Source of the DNA: Kiritimatiellia bacterium
GTDB taxonomy: Bacteria; Verrucomicrobiota; Kiritimatiellia; RFP12; UBA1067
Reading direction: 5' to 3'
DNA length: 61,413 nucleotides
Assembly: GCA_017628025.1 (NCBI GenBank)
Contig: JAGBZX010000025.1
Span: 1 to 61,413, forward strand
The translations under genes and the position numbers were made by a program. Positions 1 to 8,357 of this stretch are shown piece by piece; within the stretch, counting starts at the first letter, position 1, and each line of letters begins with the position of its first letter. The notes below the pieces were generated by a model, which did not search any database, was not told the DNA's origin, and saw only the letters and a list, made by a program, of their open reading frames with translations.

Positions 1-861
1 ACCTTGTATTATTTTTGAAAGGTCTTCAAACTCACCAGCAAAATTAGAATCTGGATAATGATCAAAATCATCATATTTAATTGTCAATCTACCATTTTTA
101 CGCATCTGAGGCAATCCGACCCAAGGCGATGCAATATAAAAAGATTGCTTGAGACCAAACAATTCCTTTAAAGGCGCATCGGGAATTAACTTACGTGTTG
201 TTATTTCTTCATGCACACCATAAACCAATTCTGCATCCTCAGAGAATAAGACTTTTTCAGCATCCATAAGCCACTTTATATCATAATACTCCATGGAAGT
301 AGCATAATTATAAGCATCATATATCCTTGCATTTAAATGCTCTTTATACTTACTAAGGCATTCTGTATATTTTGACCTGAATACTTGATATACCTTCTCT
401 AAATCAGCAGCATAATCTTCCCCTATACCCACGGCGCGAATAAATGCTGCGTATGCTCTTTTCGAGTCGCCTTGAGACATTTTTTCTTTATACGATTCAA
501 ATACTTTTTTTGTATATACATCAAGTTTTTCTAATACTTCACAAAACTGTCCACGCCCTAATTCATTTTCAAAATCCGAAGATGCCATCTCTACAGAAAG
601 TAACGATAACATTTCACCCCTATTCAACCGTTCACCAAGTATTGCAATCTGAGTAGCCCAACCTTTAAGAGGACGCCACGCGATCAACTCAAGCAATAAA
701 GGATATCTCGCGCTCAGGTTAACAATCTGATGTATCATTCTAGCCAATGTACTCTTACCAGAGGCATTAATGCCAGATAATACCGTTATTGAATCTAATT
801 CAATATCAGCACTTTTTATAGCCTTACTATTTACCACAGACAATTTATATTTTGCGCTCAT
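1..861 (-). CDS. P-loop (AAA/ABC-like) ATPase, N-terminal 287 aa; C-terminus lies beyond the window edge
   Basis: Frame is open from ATG (complement 859-861) to position 1. It is missing from the ORF track only because no stop lies in the window. Walker A GINASGKST at aa 30-38. Preceded by promoter-leader module A1. Confidence 0.6.
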   Translation of the reverse strand, partial: MSAKYKLSVVNSKAIKSADIELDSITVLSGINASGKSTLARMIHQIVNLSARYPLLLELIAWRPLKGWATQIAILGERLNRGEMLSLLSVEMASSDFENELGRGQFCEVLEKLDVYTKKVFESYKEKMSQGDSKRAYAAFIRAVGIGEDYAADLEKVYQVFRSKYTECLSKYKEHLNARIYDAYNYATSMEYYDIKWLMDAEKVLFSEDAELVYGVHEEITTRKLIPDAPLKELFGLKQSFYIASPWVGLPQMRKNGRLTIKYDDFDHYPDSNFAGEFEDLSKIIQG

Positions 862-920
862 TTTAATCTCTCTATTTTTATAACTTCCTGTATATACAAT
901 CTACTAAATCAAAAGACCAA

Positions 921-1011
921 ACTCTCGCCCCATGGGGTATGTAGCCGAATACCTCATCACAAATTTTTGAATTATTCTATTGTGCCTCTTCAACACAACG
1001 ATATTATACCA
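921..1011 (-). promoter_or_regulatory. Promoter-leader module A1 (TGGTATAAT extended -10 at 1003-1011; palindrome GCCCCATGGGG at 927-937) driving the ATPase gene
   Basis: Aligns by eye with modules at 3866-3974 and 4296-4403. Conserved core is GGNATATTCGGCTACATNCCCCATGGGG. Confidence 0.55.
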
Positions 1012-1087
1012 TTTAGACGATAAAATTACCACAATTACAGTAATTTTAACCAATAAAAACCTATTAGGATCAAATAGTAATTTTTTA

Positions 1088-1115
1088 GGTGAAGGTCAAA
1101 GGTGAAGGTGAACAG
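1088..1115. repeat. GGTGAAGGTCAAAGGTGAAGGTGAACAG low-complexity boundary repeat (copy 1)
   Basis: Near-identical copies at 1712-1740 and 4101-4127, plus an inverted copy at 4253-4279. Confidence 0.8.
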
Positions 1116-1120
1116 TGGCG

Positions 1121-1141
1121 GTTTTTAGCCGTGTAGAGGTG
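1121..1141. repeat. Left arm of the inverted repeat bracketing the GxxExxY fragment (GTTTTTAGCCGTGTAGAGGTG)
   Basis: Its reverse complement is found at 1454-1473 (CACCTCTACACGGCTAAAAC), 20 of 21 matched. Confidence 0.85.
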
Positions 1142-1409
1142 GAGATGGGGAGAAGTTTGGGACCACTGTGCGTGTTTCGAATCGATATGATCCAAAGTTT
1201 ATGAGAAGAGCCTTCTTGAATCCTGTAATCTTCAAATAGTTAAGAACTTGCGCGTAATGCTCTCCGGCAAGTGCACTGACCGCCTTTAGTTCCAGGATCA
1301 ACTCTCCGTTCACCACCAAATCCGCAAAATACTCGCCCAACAAATACCCATCCTCATCTCTGACCTCAAGTTTCTTCTGTGATTCTACACAATATCCCGC
1401 TTTCTCCAA
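1125..1409 (-). pseudogene. GxxExxY protein (PD-(D/E)XK nuclease-fold family) fragment, N-terminally truncated
   Basis: Translation contains ...GEYFADLVVNGELILELKAVSALAGEHYAQVLNYLKITGFKKALLINFG. It lacks about 35-40 N-terminal residues typical of the family. The 'start' is TTG, the upstream frame hits a stop within 60 nt, and the C-terminal tail is encoded by the inverted-repeat arm. Confidence 0.6.
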
Positions 1410-1453
1410 CCGGTGCTTCCGGCATTCTCCATCTCTTATTCCCTTCCCTTCTA

Positions 1454-1473
1454 CACCTCTACACGGCTAAAAC
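1454..1473. repeat. Right arm of the inverted repeat bracketing the GxxExxY fragment
   Basis: Reverse complement of 1121-1141. Confidence 0.85.
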
Positions 1474-1483
1474 AGACAACGCT

Positions 1484-1543
1484 CCGTACGTCGCAATAAC
1501 ATTGAGGAATATTCGCCGATTAGCTGTCATCTTAGGGGTTGGG
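1484..1543. repeat. Repeat module X (copy X1), about 58 bp
   Basis: Aligns with 1619-1676 and 4037-4095. The minus strand reads CCCAACCCCTAAGATGACAGCTAATCGGCG..., a vestigial ATG-initiated stub. Confidence 0.7.
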
Positions 1544-1552
1544 TGTTAACTA

Positions 1553-1618
1553 TTTTATGTAACTTTTTTGTTAATTCTTCTAAACTAAGTCCCACGTTTA
1601 CGAATTCAAGCCCAACCT
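1553..1618. repeat. Repeat module Y (copy Y1), about 65 bp
   Basis: TTTTATGTAACTTTTTTGTTAAT... aligns with 3975-4036. Confidence 0.7.
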
Positions 1619-1676
1619 GTACGGTGCTATAATATTCAAAAATATGAGACGATTAAGAATCATTGAGTAGTTGGAG
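1619..1676. repeat. Repeat module X (copy X1')
   Basis: Diverged copy of 1484-1543 and 4037-4095. Confidence 0.55.
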
Positions 1677-1781
1677 TTGTGAGTTCGAGTTGGAGAGTGG
1701 CGGTTTTATTTAGGTGAAGGTCAAAATTGATGGTGAACAGTGAAAGTATAGATGGTAATTTAATTATTTAATTATTGAAGT

Positions 1782-2372
1782 TTATTTTCCTATAAACACA
1801 CCTAGATCTGGCCTATCCAACTCTTTATACAAAATATCTAATATTCTTAACAAATGATTTGACTCGCGCTTAATAGCCTCCTTAGATGCCTGCAAAATCT
1901 CATAAAGTTCATTAATTTCAGATGGCATCAATTTACTATTAAGACCTCTCAATATTACACTGGCATTTATTCTCTGGCATGTCGTGACAAAATTTAACAA
2001 AGTATTTGCGTCCGAAATTTCACTAGGCCCTCTTGCTGGTATCGCACTATGTATATACGGCATCACAGCCAATACTTCCGTGTCCGTATCAGAAGCCGTC
2101 GCATATTTTTGAATCATATTAAATGTCAGGACTACATTAAGCCGCACTTTTTCCTCAGACGGATCATCTGTCACAATTTTAACCAATGTATCACATAAAT
2201 TATTCCTATAGGTCAATGCTTTAATAGCCCCGATTATTGCATCGTGTGCTTTAATATACATAAGATGTCGTATATTAGCTTCTGATGCAACTCTCTGCGC
2301 TTTTATTGATGCGCATCGATTTATTACAGCACCTACTATTACCCCAACCAATCCAATAATAGCTTCACTCAT
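1782..2372 (-). CDS. Hypothetical membrane-anchored protein (one N-terminal TM helix plus a helical domain)
   Basis: 196-aa ORF with a hydrophobic N-terminus (IIGLVGVIVGAVI). I recognise no family motif. Bracketed by inverted GAGTTCGAG-type repeats. Confidence 0.5.
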   Translation of the reverse strand: MSEAIIGLVGVIVGAVINRCASIKAQRVASEANIRHLMYIKAHDAIIGAIKALTYRNNLCDTLVKIVTDDPSEEKVRLNVVLTFNMIQKYATASDTDTEVLAVMPYIHSAIPARGPSEISDANTLLNFVTTCQRINASVILRGLNSKLMPSEINELYEILQASKEAIKRESNHLLRILDILYKELDRPDLGVFIGK

Positions 2373-2472
2373 AAAAATCTTCTTGTTAATTTATTTTCTG
2401 ACACATCATTAAACTCTAACTCGAACCTTTCCGCTATCAGCGGCTCACTACTCTGCGAACTCACAAAAAAAA

Positions 2473-2682
2473 CTATCGTTCTTTTGACTTCAGTTCCGCT
2501 ATAACATTCTCTAGCACATACCCATCACTCATCAACTGAAGACCATACTTTGCATCTGACAATTGCTTGTATGTTTCTGTTGAATAGAAGATATCCAACG
2601 CCTTCTCTTCATCAACTTCAAGCGCTGAAGCAAGGGCCATAATGATTCTCGCCTGCTTTCTCCATAAAACATTGTCACGCAT
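2473..2682 (-). CDS. DUF3791-like small protein
   Basis: 69 aa. The pattern ...ALDIFYSTETYKQLSDAKYGLQLMSDGY... is typical of DUF3791 partners of DUF3990. It starts 8 nt after the DUF3990 stop, with GGTG in the gap. Confidence 0.55.
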   Translation of the reverse strand: MRDNVLWRKQARIIMALASALEVDEEKALDIFYSTETYKQLSDAKYGLQLMSDGYVLENVIAELKSKER

Positions 2683-2690
2683 AATACACC

Positions 2691-3185
2691 TTATAAAATT
2701 TCAGCTCCAATAAACTTAAGACATGTATCAATCACAACTTGAGAACGAATGCATATCTGATGATTTACCTTTTTATAAATTAATTGGCCCAATGCCTGCT
2801 CTGCTGTTATTATGCCATTTTCATAATCTTCGACGGTATCAATTACATTATCATTAGCAACGCCACCTTCTATCACATCGTACTGAAGCTGCAATTCTCC
2901 TCCACGCCTACAATCAATCACATAATTTAGCCATTCCATATCATACGCATCAAACACCTTATAACGCGCACCTAACATATTCTTGGCCATCGCTTCATTA
3001 AAATCATAAGTGTTCAACACTGGCTTACCATATCGAGTACGACTTGCAATAACCCTAGCCCAAGATTTAGCTTGATCTGAAAGACTTGAGAGATAGAACC
3101 CTCTACCAAAATCCACCCTGGCGCGCCCAGCTTCCACCTTTGGATTCGCTACACTAACATCAGACCCGTGAAACAACTGAATCAT
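2691..3185 (-). CDS. DUF3990-like protein (possible ADP-ribosyltransferase-fold enzyme)
   Basis: Begins MIQLFHGS. Motifs are LFHGS (aa 4-8), GRGFYLS (aa 27-33) and DVIEGG (aa 103-108). I moved the start to ATG 3185, which forms an ATGA overlap with the stop of the upstream ORF. Confidence 0.65.
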   Translation of the reverse strand: MIQLFHGSDVSVANPKVEAGRARVDFGRGFYLSSLSDQAKSWARVIASRTRYGKPVLNTYDFNEAMAKNMLGARYKVFDAYDMEWLNYVIDCRRGGELQLQYDVIEGGVANDNVIDTVEDYENGIITAEQALGQLIYKKVNHQICIRSQVVIDTCLKFIGAEIL

Positions 3186-3460
3186 ACACCGGCCTCCCAA
3201 TTTTTCAAAGTTGTTATGGTATCTTCTGCAACCCAATCGAGACTTTGGGTATGCAAGTCATCATACATTGCGATTAAACGATTGTGAATCAAGTCTTGAG
3301 CTTTGAGCCGATCATGCATAACCTGACCCGAAACACCAAGCTTTCGAGCGCCACTCTCAATCGCCATCACAGCAAAGTGTATGCGCTTATGTACATCAGA
3401 TTTATTGAACGCATTCATACCCATAACTCTCCCTTCATCCAATCTTGTAAATCCCATCAA
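3182..3460 (-). CDS. DUF3791-like small protein (start may be the internal ATG at 3424)
   Basis: 92-aa ORF. ...FAVMAIESGARKLGVSGQVMHDRLKAQDLIHNRLIAMYDDLHTQS... resembles DUF3791. Translationally coupled to DUF3990. Confidence 0.55.
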   Translation of the reverse strand: MMGFTRLDEGRVMGMNAFNKSDVHKRIHFAVMAIESGARKLGVSGQVMHDRLKAQDLIHNRLIAMYDDLHTQSLDWVAEDTITTLKNWEAGV

Positions 3461-3544
3461 TCCTGTAAAACCCTCTCATCAAACAATCTCCAATTCCTCT
3501 ATTCACCTTCACCTCTGAAAAACTCGAACTCCAACTCCTACTAT

Positions 3545-3712
3545 CTATTTCCCGTTCGGATTTACCGAAGTGACTGTACCATCTGGTAATTGCCAAACAA
3601 GTTTTCCATTCAAGGAATAAACATTCGCTATTCCCTTGCGCCGATTTTCTTCCTGCGCAAGTTGAACGGCTTCAGATATAATTCGATATAACTTTGTAGT
3701 AATCTCGCTCAT
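3545..3712 (-). CDS. Small hypothetical protein, 55 aa (MSEITTKLYRIISEAVQLAQEENRRKGIANVYSLNGKLVWQLPDGTVTSVNPNGK)
   Basis: Below the ORF-track length cutoff. Strong SD AAGGAGG 6 nt upstream. Its ATG overlaps the TGA of the preceding micro-ORF (ATGA). Confidence 0.45.
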   Translation of the reverse strand: MSEITTKLYRIISEAVQLAQEENRRKGIANVYSLNGKLVWQLPDGTVTSVNPNGK

Positions 3713-3831
3713 AAATCCTCCTTAAATTTCAAATACAATTCTTCTGACAATATCAATGCGTCATCACTTTTATGACCTTCTGCTACAACGACAATTGCAC
3801 CTGCAAGTATATATAATTTCGGCGTTACCAT
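3709..3831 (-). CDS. Micro-ORF, 40 aa (MVTPKLYILAGAIVVVAEGHKSDDALILSEELYLKFKEDL)
   Basis: First ORF after promoter-leader module A2. Preceded by GGAG-rich leader sequence and coupled to the 55-aa ORF. Confidence 0.3.
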   Translation of the reverse strand: MVTPKLYILAGAIVVVAEGHKSDDALILSEELYLKFKEDL

Positions 3832-3865
3832 TCTTCAACTCCATTCTTAACTCCATTACTCCAAA

Positions 3866-3974
3866 CTCCCCCACTTCTCAACATATTCCACCACATGGGG
3901 TATGTAGCCGAATATCCCATTACAAACTTTTGATTTCTATTATCACATCTCTTTAACACAACATTATTATATCA
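3866..3974 (-). promoter_or_regulatory. Promoter-leader module A2 (TGATATAAT at 3966-3974; degenerate palindrome CCACATGGGG at 3891-3900)
   Basis: Aligns with A1 and A3. Sits upstream of the micro-ORF pair. Confidence 0.55.
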
Positions 3975-4036
3975 TTTTATGTAACTTTTTTGTTACTTTT
4001 TACACTAAGCACCACATCCACGCTTCCAAACTCAGA
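3975..4036. repeat. Repeat module Y (copy Y2)
   Basis: Aligns with 1553-1618. Confidence 0.7.
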
Positions 4037-4095
4037 GCGTATATCGCAATGATGTTCAAGATTTCTGGCGGTTAGAAGTCATTTTAGGGGTTAGG
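4037..4095. repeat. Repeat module X (copy X2)
   Basis: Aligns with 1484-1543. The ATG stub is degenerate here (ATGACTTCTAACCGCCAGAAATCTTGA). Confidence 0.7.
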
Positions 4096-4100
4096 ATTTA

Positions 4101-4127
4101 GGTGAAGGTCAAAGGTGAAGGTGAACA
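4101..4127. repeat. Left arm of the inverted repeat bracketing the four-helix-bundle fragment
   Basis: GGTGAAGGTCAAAGGTGAAGGTGAACA. The reverse-complement-like arm is at 4253-4279. Confidence 0.8.
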
Positions 4128-4252
4128 AAGGTGATTGTCATTAATGCGAAGCGCTCATCTAAAGGAAATTTCTTAATTTCCTCATACACGAGCCCCACAA
4201 GCTCAACCGATTTTTGCCAGACTATTAATTTTCTATAACCAAAATCTTCCAT
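4109..4252 (-). pseudogene. Four-helix-bundle protein (23S rRNA intervening-sequence protein / Avd-like family), N-terminal fragment only
   Basis: MEDFGYRKLIVWQKSVELVGLVYEEIKKFPLDERFAL matches the characteristic N-terminus of the family. The frame then runs into the boundary repeat and stops after 47 codons. Confidence 0.6.
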
Positions 4253-4279
4253 TGTTCACCTTCGCCTTTCACCTTCACC
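4253..4279. repeat. Right arm of the inverted repeat bracketing the four-helix-bundle fragment
   Basis: TGTTCACCTTCGCCTTTCACCTTCACC, an imperfect reverse complement of 4101-4127. Confidence 0.8.
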
Positions 4280-4295
4280 TCTACCACCCAACTCC

Positions 4296-4403
4296 ATCAC
4301 TCCCTCACTTCTCAACATATCCCGCCCCATGGGGCATGTAGCCGAATATCCCACTCTCGAATTGTTTTGAGTTTTCTCTCTCATAACGCTTACATTAATA
4401 TCA
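4296..4403 (-). promoter_or_regulatory. Promoter-leader module A3 (TGATATTAAT at 4394-4403; perfect 12-bp palindrome GCCCCATGGGGC at 4324-4335)
   Basis: Aligns with A1 and A2. Sits upstream of the four-helix-bundle fragment. Confidence 0.55.
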
Positions 4404-4489
4404 TTTTTTGTATTTTTTTGAAAGTTTCCTCCTCCACCTAACCTTGCACCTAACCTTGCCTTGGAAGAAAATTTCATGTCCCTTTTCTT

Positions 4490-4518
4490 AAAATGAGAAT
4501 TATGTGCGGAAAATTCTT
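4490..4518 (+). repeat. AATGAGAA motif copy M1 (AAAATGAGAATTATGTGCGGAAAATTCTT)
   Basis: 29-bp motif also at 27922-27950 and 28073-28101, and inverted at 61082-61110. Confidence 0.8.
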
Positions 4519-4715
4519 ACCACATTGCCACTTTTGTGATATTTCGCAAAAATTAACATTATATGCTGATTACTACAAACTATATCGGCTTTATACTGAA
4601 GAGAAAACTCCTCCTAAGCCATCCGCACCGACAGCCGCGCCGTGAGGGTTTTGTTTGCTAGGCTTTCTTAATTCCCACATACAGTGGGATATGACCATTG
4701 GGATCTTAATTTAGA

Positions 4716-6146
4716 TTATTTGCCAAGAATTTTTTCAAAGTATGGCAGAACTGCATCACGCCAAACCGCATAACCCTTGGGGTTAGTATGAAGAAGGTCT
4801 TCCATATAAATCTTAGTGTTGCCCTTCTCATCAACTAGTTTATCGTTAAAATCAACCCAGATCACATTCTCTCCATCAGCAAAAGTTTTAGTAATTTTGT
4901 TAACCGCTTCGTTTCTTATACGGTTTTTATCCTCACTCGACGCGCCGCGAGGAAAGATCGGAAGCAAAAGCACTTTTGCTTCTGCGTGTTTAGAACGAAT
5001 AACCTCTAAAATGCGCTTTGTGCCTTCTGCAATATCACTAGGCTTATCTCTACCATTATTAGTGCCAATCATCAACATGAATAATTTAGCCTTATATCCT
5101 TCAAGCTCTCCATACATCATTCTCCAAAGAACATGCTGCGTGCGATCACTACCATAACCAAGATTAAGAATAGAATACCTTTTCTTTAGTTCTGCAAAAA
5201 GAGCTACGCCTTCACCGCCTTTACGCTCCCAGCGATGCGTAATAGAATCTCCTACAAATACTAAATCATATTCCTTTGGACCATTGATAATTTCATTTCT
5301 CTTTTCAAGTGTGCGAGTTTTCCACCAAGGTGATTTTGCAAAAAAGTTCGTTGGTTTTATCGGCGCAGGAATTTTGTTGGATTTCTTAGGCGCAACTCTA
5401 CCTTTGACGACTGCTCCCTTAGGAGCATTAAGCGCGCGATCTATAATTGGCACCAATTCTTTAGCTATGACTTCATAACCATAATCATTAGGATGAAGAC
5501 GATCATTCATAAATTTCTTTGTATCGCCCTTTTCATCAACAAGCTTATCATTAAAATCACACCAGATTACCTTCTTCCCATCACAAAACTCAACGATAAC
5601 TTCATTTACAACTTTATTGCGCTTCCGAACTGCATCAGAATCTGACGCGCCTGATGGATAGATGGCCGTAAGCAGAATTCTCGCCTCTGGCTGTTTTTGC
5701 TTTATAATTTCGAGGATTTTCTTTATACCATGAATCGTATCAATTGGTGGCTCTTTCTCAAATGAATGGTGACCCGCGTTATTGCATCCAATTAATAAAA
5801 CTACAACCTTTGCTTTGTAGCCATCAAGTTCACGACCTTGCGTTATGCGCCAAATAACATGCTCCGTCCTGTCCCCCGAGACACCTAAATTAAGAGCCTT
5901 GCGAGGGCCATCAACGAAGTTATCTTTCCAAGATTGCTTCTGTTCCCAAAAATGCGTAATACTATCGCCGATAAATACAACATTAGCGACACTGCTAGTT
6001 ATACTATTAAGAAATTGTTCGTGACGCTTTAATTGCCAAGCATCTTTTTTATCACCCCATTTATTAGGTGTTACCGCACGAATATCTGCATGCAATGACG
6101 AAGCTAAAACTAAAGACAAAACAAACACGAAGCGCGTAAAATTCAT
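4716..6146 (-). CDS. Secreted tandem SGNH/GDSL hydrolase (two PAF-acetylhydrolase-like esterase domains)
   Basis: Signal peptide. GDSITHFWE and GDSITHRWE, G(V/Y)SGDRT, IGCNN/IGTNN and LHPN/LHTN blocks each occur twice. Confidence 0.8.
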   Translation of the reverse strand: MNFTRFVFVLSLVLASSLHADIRAVTPNKWGDKKDAWQLKRHEQFLNSITSSVANVVFIGDSITHFWEQKQSWKDNFVDGPRKALNLGVSGDRTEHVIWRITQGRELDGYKAKVVVLLIGCNNAGHHSFEKEPPIDTIHGIKKILEIIKQKQPEARILLTAIYPSGASDSDAVRKRNKVVNEVIVEFCDGKKVIWCDFNDKLVDEKGDTKKFMNDRLHPNDYGYEVIAKELVPIIDRALNAPKGAVVKGRVAPKKSNKIPAPIKPTNFFAKSPWWKTRTLEKRNEIINGPKEYDLVFVGDSITHRWERKGGEGVALFAELKKRYSILNLGYGSDRTQHVLWRMMYGELEGYKAKLFMLMIGTNNGRDKPSDIAEGTKRILEVIRSKHAEAKVLLLPIFPRGASSEDKNRIRNEAVNKITKTFADGENVIWVDFNDKLVDEKGNTKIYMEDLLHTNPKGYAVWRDAVLPYFEKILGK

Positions 6147-7008: not shown

Positions 7009-8357
7009 TTCTGGATCTGGACTTTCTTCATCATTTGCATCATTGCAATACCAGAGGCTGCAGGTCCAATCGCTTTAATTTCATCAGCAGAAATGCGGAT
7101 AAGCGACTCGTGCTTGTTACCCTTCTTCGTTGAATACCACGCTATACCAGCAGAATTATCCTGCGGCAGAACATCAAAGACGAGCGTTTTTATTTGCTCA
7201 CGCTCTGCCGATTCAACATTCTCAAGTATCACGCTCTCCAATGCCTTTAAAAGAGAATTTACCGAAACGAAACCGACGAGATAATTGTTCGCTTTCTGAA
7301 TTTCTGGCAACGTATTTATTAGGCGGCTAGAAATCGCAGCGCTAGGCTTATAATTTCTAACTGTCACGGTCGTGCGCTTCATGGAAGGAGCCTCAACAGC
7401 GGAGGATTTAAGAGCTTCAAAATCAGCACGAAGGACATCGCAATTTACCTTACCACTGCACTTGGCTTCTTTTATGCTCTTAACGCCCGAAAGTAAAGAC
7501 TTGGGGTCTATTGTTATATCAACGAAGCCTTCATTGCATACAAAAGAAATAAACGAAGAAATATCTATGCCATTTTTCTTTAACGTTTCAATGATTTTAT
7601 CGCATCCAACCTTTTTAGAATTAGCCCCCTTATTCATCGCTATCATGTAAAGCGCATCACTGGGGATATTTGAAAGAATTGAATTATCCAACAATTTATC
7701 GCCGATTTTATCTAAGTTTGAACCCTTTACAACAGTCATAAAATGACGAATATCAATGCCAGCGTTCGTCATTTTTAAAGAGAAATCGAAACTATCAACA
7801 TTCTTTAAAAGCTCTGCTTTTGCATGAGAGTTAAGTTCGGACTGCTCTAAAGCACGGCGAGTTACCTTAGCGCGAATGATATCCTTACCAATTTTCTTTT
7901 CAGCTAGCTTCGTGTATTTTAGTATCGCACGAGCACGGCGGGGATCAGATGAAACTCCTACCCAATCTCCTGACTTAGCAAACACTGCATATAATTCATT
8001 GGATACTTTAATAACACCGTTTGACTCTACAGCATCTGGGTTGTTTTGTAAAATTTCAGCCTTTGTAGAGGCAACTGGATAAAGGCAACCGCCGCAAATC
8101 TCACCATGATCAATTATTCCAACAATCATGGCACCGACACCAGTGCGTGACTCGCCGAAAATCATCGCTAAAGGATTGCTAGAGATTGCCTGCGTCGCCA
8201 TCATGCTCAGCATAGGATTACCTAGCATCATACCTAAATTTGAAATATTTTCGACAAGCGTTTGCGTGTCATTTAACTTTACGTAACCTGCCAACTCATC
8301 CTTTGCAGAAAGCTGCAACGAGAAGCAAATCGCGACAAACATTAATATTCTTTTCAT
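7005..8357 (-). CDS. Hypothetical secreted protein
   Basis: 450-aa ORF with a signal peptide and a GGAG SD. ATGA overlap with ispE. No family recognised. Confidence 0.6.
   Translation of the reverse strand: MKRILMFVAICFSLQLSAKDELAGYVKLNDTQTLVENISNLGMMLGNPMLSMMATQAISSNPLAMIFGESRTGVGAMIVGIIDHGEICGGCLYPVASTKAEILQNNPDAVESNGVIKVSNELYAVFAKSGDWVGVSSDPRRARAILKYTKLAEKKIGKDIIRAKVTRRALEQSELNSHAKAELLKNVDSFDFSLKMTNAGIDIRHFMTVVKGSNLDKIGDKLLDNSILSNIPSDALYMIAMNKGANSKKVGCDKIIETLKKNGIDISSFISFVCNEGFVDITIDPKSLLSGVKSIKEAKCSGKVNCDVLRADFEALKSSAVEAPSMKRTTVTVRNYKPSAAISSRLINTLPEIQKANNYLVGFVSVNSLLKALESVILENVESAEREQIKTLVFDVLPQDNSAGIAWYSTKKGNKHESLIRISADEIKAIGPAASGIAMMQMMKKVQIQK

Follow-up and report, generated by a model that had tools for sequence, protein, structure and literature searches.

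Within the 61,413-nt stretch of contig JAGBZX010000025.1 analyzed here (the window), which comes from a gut or rumen Kiritimatiellia metagenome-assembled genome (MAG), three adjacent minus-strand genes encode B, a 164-aa DUF3990 protein with a predicted ADP-ribosyltransferase (ART) fold, and two small proteins of the DUF3791 type, A and C. On balance, we favor the view that the three genes together make up a toxin module of three components, complete in itself and able to move horizontally. Its kind is already catalogued, through the ART clan of Pfam and as PDC-M13 in PADLOC, and the window adds one further member. The parts of the trio are as follows.

3182..3424, minus strand: gene A, an 80-aa DUF3791 protein with PF12668 and PADLOC PDC-M13A matches, whose stop overlaps the start of B
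3182..3185, minus strand: ATGA overlap, four bases shared by the stop of A and the start of B (TCAT on the plus strand)
2691..3185, minus strand: gene B, a 164-aa DUF3990 protein with a predicted ART fold
2683..2690, minus strand: 8-nt spacer between B and C, reading AATACACC on the plus strand and, on the coding strand, GGTGTATT, inside which lies GGTG, a weak Shine-Dalgarno-like sequence
2473..2682, minus strand: gene C, a 69-aa helical protein, by remote evidence a divergent DUF3791-like paralogue of A

An earlier note on this DNA, made from the sequence alone, had described the three genes, the ATGA overlap, the 8-nt GGTG spacer and three motifs in B, and reading the sequence places all of them where the note had put them; by residue, the motifs are LFHGS (4–8), GRGFYLS (27–33) and DVIEGG (103–108). 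The longest open reading frame (ORF) for gene A, 3460..3182, begins with TTG and would encode 92 aa. The ATG at 3424, which gives the 80-aa protein, is the likelier start because the Shine-Dalgarno-like AAGGGAGAG precedes it at 3435..3427. An Rfam scan of positions 1–5000 and a promoter and terminator scan of 1600–4300 returned nothing above chance.

B matches Pfam DUF3990 (PF13151) at 153.2 bits (E = 5.5e-45; gathering cut-off 32.2 bits), with residues 2–158 covering positions 1–152 of the 152-position profile. A matches DUF3791 (PF12668) at 39 bits (E = 8.1e-10; profile positions 2–60 of 60), above the cut-off of 25 bits, and C has no Pfam match at E ≤ 1, so it does not reach the DUF3791 cut-off. 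The proposal that both partners are DUF3791 proteins thus stands for A and fails at the Pfam threshold for C, which appears to be a divergent paralogue lying below it. The PADLOC models for PDC-M13 match all three proteins (A, 5.5e-13; B, 6.5e-49; C, 4.6e-11), and the genes are adjacent on one strand; the assignment is based on these component hidden Markov model (HMM) matches and on adjacency, apart from PADLOC's own system rules. B also matches PDC-M10A (1.8e-30), of PDC-M10, a two-gene relative of PDC-M13. None of the three proteins has a match in NCBIfam or PHROGs. When 1.84 billion representatives were searched exhaustively, relatives of B came out as 2195 clusters at 50% identity. Relatives of A formed 522 clusters, with PF12668 present in 120 of 120 among the matches listed, and 661 relatives of C were found, with a Pfam domain in 0 of 120 among the matches listed.

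Pfam has placed DUF3990 in the ART clan (PMC7955679), and PDC-M13 is one of 145 PDC candidates predicted from their embedding in BREX, DISARM and type I restriction systems (bioRxiv 10.1101/2024.01.29.577857). A rumen survey counted 3324 PDC-M13 loci (PMC13356809). DUF3990 also forms the C-terminal tip, that is, the toxin position, of type VI secretion system Rhs effectors in Serratia and Enterobacter, with no function assigned (PMC4524185, PMC10763514).

We surveyed 80 genome loci found with an alignment of the close subfamily; individual loci are cited by our own numbers (L001 and so on). The simple one-strand order A-B-C holds for 81 of 89 B genes, three of them with an additional ORF D that is described below, and overall the order A-B-C, with A upstream of B, is seen in about 84 of the 89 cases. 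The B genes outside the 81 lie in tandem duplications or at a contig end, apart from one that is split and one that is fused by read-through. An intact B without A was not seen among the loci examined, and no conserved fourth gene was found among the 144 nearest flanking ORFs. The loci come from Kiritimatiellia, Lentisphaeria, Verrucomicrobia, Bacteroidales and Fibrobacter, with a few bins labelled Firmicutes, Actinobacteria or Proteobacteria. More distant trios, at 31–34% identity, are carried in the order A-B-C by the Clostridium botulinum plasmid pCLI (17.5 kb, where the trio adjoins the rep gene) and in the order B-C-A by a Moraxella plasmid. Co-occurrence, permuted order and the existence of both pairwise fusions (see below) lead us to treat A, B and C as one multi-subunit unit. 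That the three genes form a single conserved module, as first suggested from the window alone, is therefore borne out by the A-B-C rule across loci and by the same parts on the Clostridium and Moraxella plasmids.

Of the 86 plasmids on which homologues were found, 29 are conjugative, 9 are mobilizable and 48 are non-mobilizable; their hosts are mostly Bacteroides, Phocaeicola, Parabacteroides and Clostridium. Among 2.9 million viral contigs of IMG/VR there were no relatives of the subfamily, and 50,697 phage records yielded six matches, all of them unannotated 'UNVERIFIED' virome scaffolds. At two loci B is broken and A and C are intact: in L026 (499–987) B is split, and on the Parabacteroides distasonis plasmid L093 (4001–4492) it has an internal stop. 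Because B decays while A and C persist, B may be costly to its own host.

Several individual copies are of interest in their own right. On the Moraxella osloensis plasmid NZ_CP014236.1 (3457–7004), B-C-A separates the hsdM and hsdS genes of a type I restriction-modification operon, and all junctions are 4-nt overlaps. On the Bacteroides fragilis plasmid pBF9343 (NC_006873.1, 3555–5615), a 149-aa DUF3791 tandem overlaps the start of the DUF3990 gene, which is followed by an 86-aa ORF and a zeta-toxin gene; this copy sits within the conjugative-transfer region, near traN, and plasmids of this family are widely distributed in Bacteroides, Phocaeicola and Parabacteroides. The metagenomic contig L087 carries two DUF3990 modules 2.7 kb apart (3670–4705 and 7427–8315), one of which has only two genes, DUF3791 and a B::C fusion; the other is a canonical A-B-C trio. 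Tandem trios occur also in L024 and L055.

The AlphaFold2 model of B, built from 59 homologues, is confident, with a predicted local distance difference test (pLDDT) score of 94.7 and a predicted template modeling (pTM) score of 0.88. A Foldseek search with this model against BFVD, a collection of predicted viral structures, gave eight matches at E ≤ 1e-3. The top match is an unnamed protein (E = 1.9e-11, template modeling (TM) score 0.78), and the others are mostly phage ART-PolyVal-like or polyvalent proteins (E = 2e-5 to 7e-4), the best named one being a protein of Salmonella phage Mutine (E = 2.1e-5, TM 0.55/0.60). Fold matches in the PDB, though weak, are nearly all ARTs (best ART E = 0.015–0.05, TM 0.3–0.5). 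They include the toxin–antitoxin (TA) toxins MbcT (6fkg_B, probability 0.69) and ParT (6d0h_A, probability 0.94, TM 0.51 on the target), PARP1, 2, 3, 10, 12, 14 and 15, the tankyrases, and the cholera and diphtheria toxins; the top match is a cyanophage pre-ejectosome protein (9k3a_B). At the level of profiles, Pfam ART-PolyVal matches 29 of 66 diverse DUF3990 proteins (best E = 2.9e-4) and PARP matches 4 of the 66, all below gathering scores. These matches always span B residues ∼1–57, the stretch that holds H-G-S and G-x-G-F-Y, and PTS_2-RNA, RES and DarT match none of the 66 proteins. An ART fold for B, which the earlier note had proposed, is thus well supported as a prediction by the confident model, the phage ART-PolyVal-like matches and the sub-threshold profile matches over the His and Tyr motifs, and the nearest relatives appear to be the ART-PolyVal and PARP branch.

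The B family carries the His and Tyr motifs of the H-Y-[E/D/Q] branch of ARTs, with H-G-[ST] on strand 1 and G-x-G-x-Y on the following strand. In a conservation table of 87 full-length B relatives at 30–50% identity, the first motif (H6 90%, G7 81%, S8 84%) and the second (G27 94%, G29 88%, F30 95%, Y31 94%) are both well kept. Position 106, in contrast to 103, is Glu in only 32% of these relatives and Ile in 39%, whereas D103, directly before the predicted strand 104–107, is 99% conserved. From this conservation and strand position the family triad would read H-Y-D. Sequences of the close subfamily (identity of at least 59%) all have H6 and Y31, and at least 90% of them have E106, so that E106 appears to be a feature of the subfamily and not of the family as a whole. 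The catalytic triad had been read as H-Y-E; His6 and Tyr31 keep their places in it, and the conserved acid is Asp103 in place of Glu106, making His6, Tyr31 and Asp103 the likely triad of B. The Y-D-[IV]-[IV] pattern around D103 resembles the PARP strand that bears the catalytic Glu. Further conserved positions are W85 (100%), R93 (99%), G107 (99%), D112 (93%) and Q143 (93%).

The kinship of A and C is more remote. C is 54% identical to WP_009018538.1 of P. distasonis, which RefSeq names a DUF3791 protein, and C-type relatives align with the DUF3791 profile over its full length and in register at sub-threshold scores (12.5–17.3 bits, E = 0.005–0.16). Within the window subfamily the A and C HMMs gave no cross-match at E < 1e-3, and hhalign of A against C with shallow, locus-derived alignments returned a probability of 1.6% (P = 0.03), which is nearly uninformative. 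Because this direct comparison is weak, we argue the relationship from tandem fusions and cross-matches. A C::A tandem fusion lies upstream of the DUF3990 gene on pBF9343. The C-like half of this 149-aa protein (residues 28–83) scores 4e-5, and its A-like half (residues 77–147) is matched by both the A HMM (1.2e-6) and the C HMM (6.9e-4); the C HMM also picks up, at 1.9e-4, the A protein encoded on C. botulinum pCLI. On this remote evidence we take C to be a divergent DUF3791 paralogue of A.

C is also found fused to B. Four divergent representatives of such B::C fusions, 229–246 aa in length, contain a C domain at E = 1e-15 to 4e-23, and the fusion P0254 occurs on at least 24 contigs, with a DUF3791 gene upstream and without a separate C downstream. 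In a model of the fusion (pLDDT 94.3, pTM 0.73) the C domain is predicted to consist of four helices. The B::C fusions suggest that C is more than a disposable antitoxin, perhaps a cis-acting regulatory or sensing domain. In L075 (6001–6720) the stop of B is lost and the frame reads through the spacer into C, which is either a recent B::C fusion or a sequencing error.

The trio lies in a mobile segment, the features of which are listed here.

1696..3514: mobile segment carrying ORF D and genes C, B and A, 98.5% identical (blastn) to a segment in another Kiritimatiellia MAG (L001), where its context is different
1705..1742, plus strand: repeat of the AGGTGAAGGT type, the copy that lies at one end of the segment (repeat family D1; inverted pairs I3 and I9)
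3494..3523, minus strand: inverted copy of the cassette-end repeat, on the opposite side of the segment (inverted pairs I6, I8 and I9; match at 3501–3514)
1782..2372, minus strand: ORF D, which encodes 196 aa, begins with a hydrophobic helix and has no significant match in Pfam or PHROG

The segment has a GC content of 38.5%, against 43.1 ± 2.4% for the rest of the window. The AGGTGAAGGTGAA-type repeat bounds the shared segment in inverted copies and occurs eight times in the window, with 0.33 copies expected; all eight lie within 1087–4280, in the first 4.3 kb of the window, and none in the remaining 57 kb. Contigs L004 and L005 share only positions 2503–3500 with the window, which is the trio without ORF D, and the identical B protein is present on eight contigs in at least four different neighborhoods, with L001, L004 and L005 each having other neighbors. 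In L001 the cassette has as neighbors an IS200-like Y1 transposase, AbiEii, and Thoeris-like ThsA/ThsB genes. The repeats, the segment comparison and the GC content show that the module sits in a repeat-bounded, variable island, so that the earlier term 'cassette island' suits it well enough. We also considered whether the island could be read as integron cassettes; no integrase was found nearby. ORF D was tried as a fourth component and rejected: only 3 of the 86 loci have it, and in each of these the cassette is the same. In two genomes ORF D and the trio move as one, but since every other trio locus lacks it, ORF D is probably outside the module.

Other features of the island and its surroundings were noted along the way. 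An IS200-like (Y1) transposase adjoins the same cassette in both L001 and L005. A PD-(D/E)XK (PDDEXK_3) ORF of 94 aa at 1125–1409 (E = 1.4e-20) is bracketed by 30-nt inverted repeats (1123–1152 and 1443–1472, 90% complementary), and the stretch 1123–1472 looks like a miniature inverted-repeat element with one small gene. Between 4100 and 4280, a truncated ORF resembling 23S rRNA intervening sequence proteins (4109–4252, 47 aa, E = 5.9e-5) is flanked by 32-nt inverted repeats, 91% complementary, which belong to the AGGTGAAGGTGAAC family found at the ends of the trio cassette. A further intergenic repeat family, whose core is CATGGGGTATGTAGCCGAATA, has three copies, with none expected, at 928–1014, 3891–3977 and 4299–4353; it is confined to the island and could be a repetitive extragenic palindromic (REP)-like element or a recombination site. 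Upstream of the trio, two overlapping small minus-strand ORFs at 3545–3712 (55 aa) and 3709–3831 (40 aa), which belong to no family and are also called in the public contigs, may form a further small cassette of two genes. The start of the window cuts into an AAA_15/AAA_21 ATPase gene (1–861, minus strand). Just beyond this edge, the matching public contig L002 (12325–16862) carries two consecutive pairs of an ATPase and a partner of ∼210 aa, like ABC-ATPase defense pairs.

In the mechanism that we propose for the module, B would be an ADP-ribosyltransferase that uses NAD+ and belongs to the H-Y-[E/D] branch, its triad consisting of His6, Tyr31 and Asp103. A and C, as paralogous helical proteins of the DUF3791 type, would bind B as a pseudo-heterodimer and hold it inactive. 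Were this restraint lost, because the element disappears or a signal arrives from a phage, B would transfer ADP-ribose to some essential macromolecule, most plausibly a nucleic acid or a component of translation. The resulting growth arrest would allow the module to act as an addiction system, as an abortive-infection defense, or as both. The predicted fold, the conserved H, Y and D, the coupled and co-occurring genes, the fusions and the mobility described above are observed; that B uses NAD+ and is toxic, that A and C neutralize it, what triggers it, what it modifies and whether it affects phages are inferred. The genomic context fits toxin, antitoxin and anti-phage roles without proving them. 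The proposed toxicity of B is backed indirectly by the use of its domain as the toxin tip of Rhs effectors, by MbcT and ParT as structural neighbors, and by the decay of B at loci where A and C are intact.

A bolder and distinctly speculative version, which we think doubtful, is that A and C form a pseudo-symmetric DUF3791 heterodimer that does more than a passive antitoxin would and acts as a sensor clamp, that C autoinhibits B in cis in the B::C fusions, and that a signal of phage infection or plasmid loss frees B to act on a target new to ARTs, in nucleic acid or translation. CapRel, in which a fused antitoxin domain autoinhibits in cis, offers a parallel for C in these fusions.

Several observations weigh against a toxin module of this kind. 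No PDB fold match of B reaches E = 1e-3 or, on the query, a TM of 0.5. PDB sequence searches with B alone and with the 66-sequence profile gave no meaningful match, from which it follows that no DUF3990 structure has been solved. The equivalence of D103 to the catalytic Glu of PARP is deduced from strand position and the local motif. The pTM of 0.73 for the fusion model means that the placement of C relative to the active site is not confidently predicted, and a covalent B::C fusion is atypical of a labile antitoxin, so that C may be a regulatory, sensor or targeting domain. The genes immediately beside the module are mostly not defense genes, which are scattered among the 144 flanking ORFs. 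The evidence gives no pointer to the target of B, which may instead degrade NAD+ as MbcT does. Finally, the literature yielded no experiment on any member of DUF3990, DUF3791 or PDC-M13, in agreement with the earlier statement that the module has no experimentally defined function, and the PDC systems are explicitly untested.

Three other explanations of the trio were weighed against the toxin module. It is possible, if on the improbable side, that the trio is purely an addiction module, in which B is the toxin of a post-segregational killing system, A, C or both are the antitoxin, and the carrier element is stabilized with no role against phage. The 86 plasmids with homologues, the zeta-toxin neighbor on pBF9343, the replication-gene neighbor on pCLI, the mobility of the cassette, its presence in several copies on some contigs (L024, L055 and L087) and the scarcity of defense genes immediately beside the chromosomal copies all fit such a role. 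However, the Moraxella copy lies inside a type I restriction operon to which it is joined by 4-nt overlaps, the L001 copy lies amid AbiE and Thoeris-like genes, and PADLOC picked the family for its embedding in defense systems. The two roles can coexist.

We consider it unlikely that mobile elements use the trio offensively or to establish themselves, with B ADP-ribosylating a host defense or regulatory factor, as proposed for the ART-PolyVal domains of polyvalent proteins from phages and conjugative elements, and with A and C as targeting or specificity subunits. This idea draws on the structural and profile relatives of B, the nearest named ones being ART-PolyVal domains of injected phage polyvalent proteins and the top PDB match a cyanophage pre-ejectosome protein (9k3a_B), as well as on the pBF9343 copy in a conjugative-transfer region near traN and on the fusion of C to B, which suits a targeting domain better than a labile antitoxin. 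The subfamily, however, is essentially absent from phages (0 in 2.9 million IMG/VR contigs and 6 of 50,697 phage records), its copies are mostly chromosomal, free-standing three-gene operons without a link to secretion or injection, and the decay of B with A and C persisting suggests a cost to its own host. We likewise give little credence to B as a non-toxic ART-fold enzyme or pseudo-enzyme (a Tpt1-like RNA 2'-phosphotransferase, an NAD+-metabolizing enzyme or a regulator) with A and C as ordinary regulatory subunits: the third triad position is Asp where Glu is canonical and the ART clan does include non-toxin enzymes such as Tpt1 (PTS_2-RNA) (PMC7955679), but the near-invariant H, Y and D together with W85, R93, G107, D112 and Q143 argue for an active enzyme, PTS_2-RNA matches 0 of 66 relatives, the domain serves as an Rhs toxin tip, and the patchy, mobile, multi-copy, plasmid-borne spread is unlike that of a housekeeping enzyme.

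The ART-fold toxins DarT, CmdT, ParT and MbcT each revealed a new target chemistry, and DUF3990 is a large ART branch without an assigned activity that is abundant in gut and rumen bacteria and common on Bacteroides plasmids. If the sensor-clamp idea were true, an abundant gut and rumen module would prove to be a mechanistically new tripartite ART defense system. The copy in the window is itself unsurprising, and its value lies in providing a well-defined experimental target. The residue to mutate in B is D103, not E106, and A, B and C are best handled as one complex, given the apparent paralogy of A and C and the natural B::C and C::A fusions. Cultivable close analogues are available in B. 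fragilis pBF9343, C. botulinum pCLI and the Moraxella osloensis plasmid.

Among known systems, the window trio is the same as PDC-M13. The Moraxella copy shows the embedded arrangement by which that system was defined, whereas the window copy is embedded in a repeat-bounded cassette island and not in a restriction system. With ART-PolyVal (PF18760) and PARP (PF00644), B has in common the predicted fold, the H-G-S of strand 1 and the G-x-G-[FI]-Y of the next strand. It differs in that its third catalytic position is probably Asp103 where theirs is Glu, and cross-family matches stay below gathering scores; B is also a free-standing protein of 164 aa with two small partners, and is part of neither a giant polyvalent protein that is injected nor a eukaryotic PARP.

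The RES/Xre pairs ParT–ParS and MbcT–MbcA resemble the trio as compact operons that combine a small ART-fold toxin with a small helical partner. However, RES toxins have R-E-S residues where DUF3990 has H-Y-D, the RES domain is matched by no member of the DUF3990 alignment, and each pair has one partner of the Xre/COG5642 type, compared with two of the DUF3791 type here. MbcT degrades NAD+ and ParT modifies the Prs protein, and neither activity can be transferred to B. DarTG likewise places an ART-fold toxin in a mobile defense or TA module. DarT, however, is matched by no family member, DarT and Macro are absent from the Pfam matches of A, B and C and of the 66 relatives, and the macrodomain antitoxin is absent from the trio and its conserved neighborhood.

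CmdTAC, a three-gene toxin–antitoxin–chaperone system whose toxin is an mRNA ADP-ribosyltransferase with a proven role in defense by blocking translation (PMC11618068), is comparable to the trio as a functional analogy only. CmdTAC has a SecB-like chaperone, whereas A and C, apparently paralogues of one another, have no SecB-like Pfam or NCBIfam match, and the kinship of CmdT to B is supported at the superfamily level only. The Rhs effectors, Serratia Rhs5 and Enterobacter RhsA, carry the same DUF3990 domain in the toxin position (PMC4524185, PMC10763514). These domains are delivered into competitors and have a separate downstream immunity gene, whereas the B protein of the window is free-standing and intracellular.

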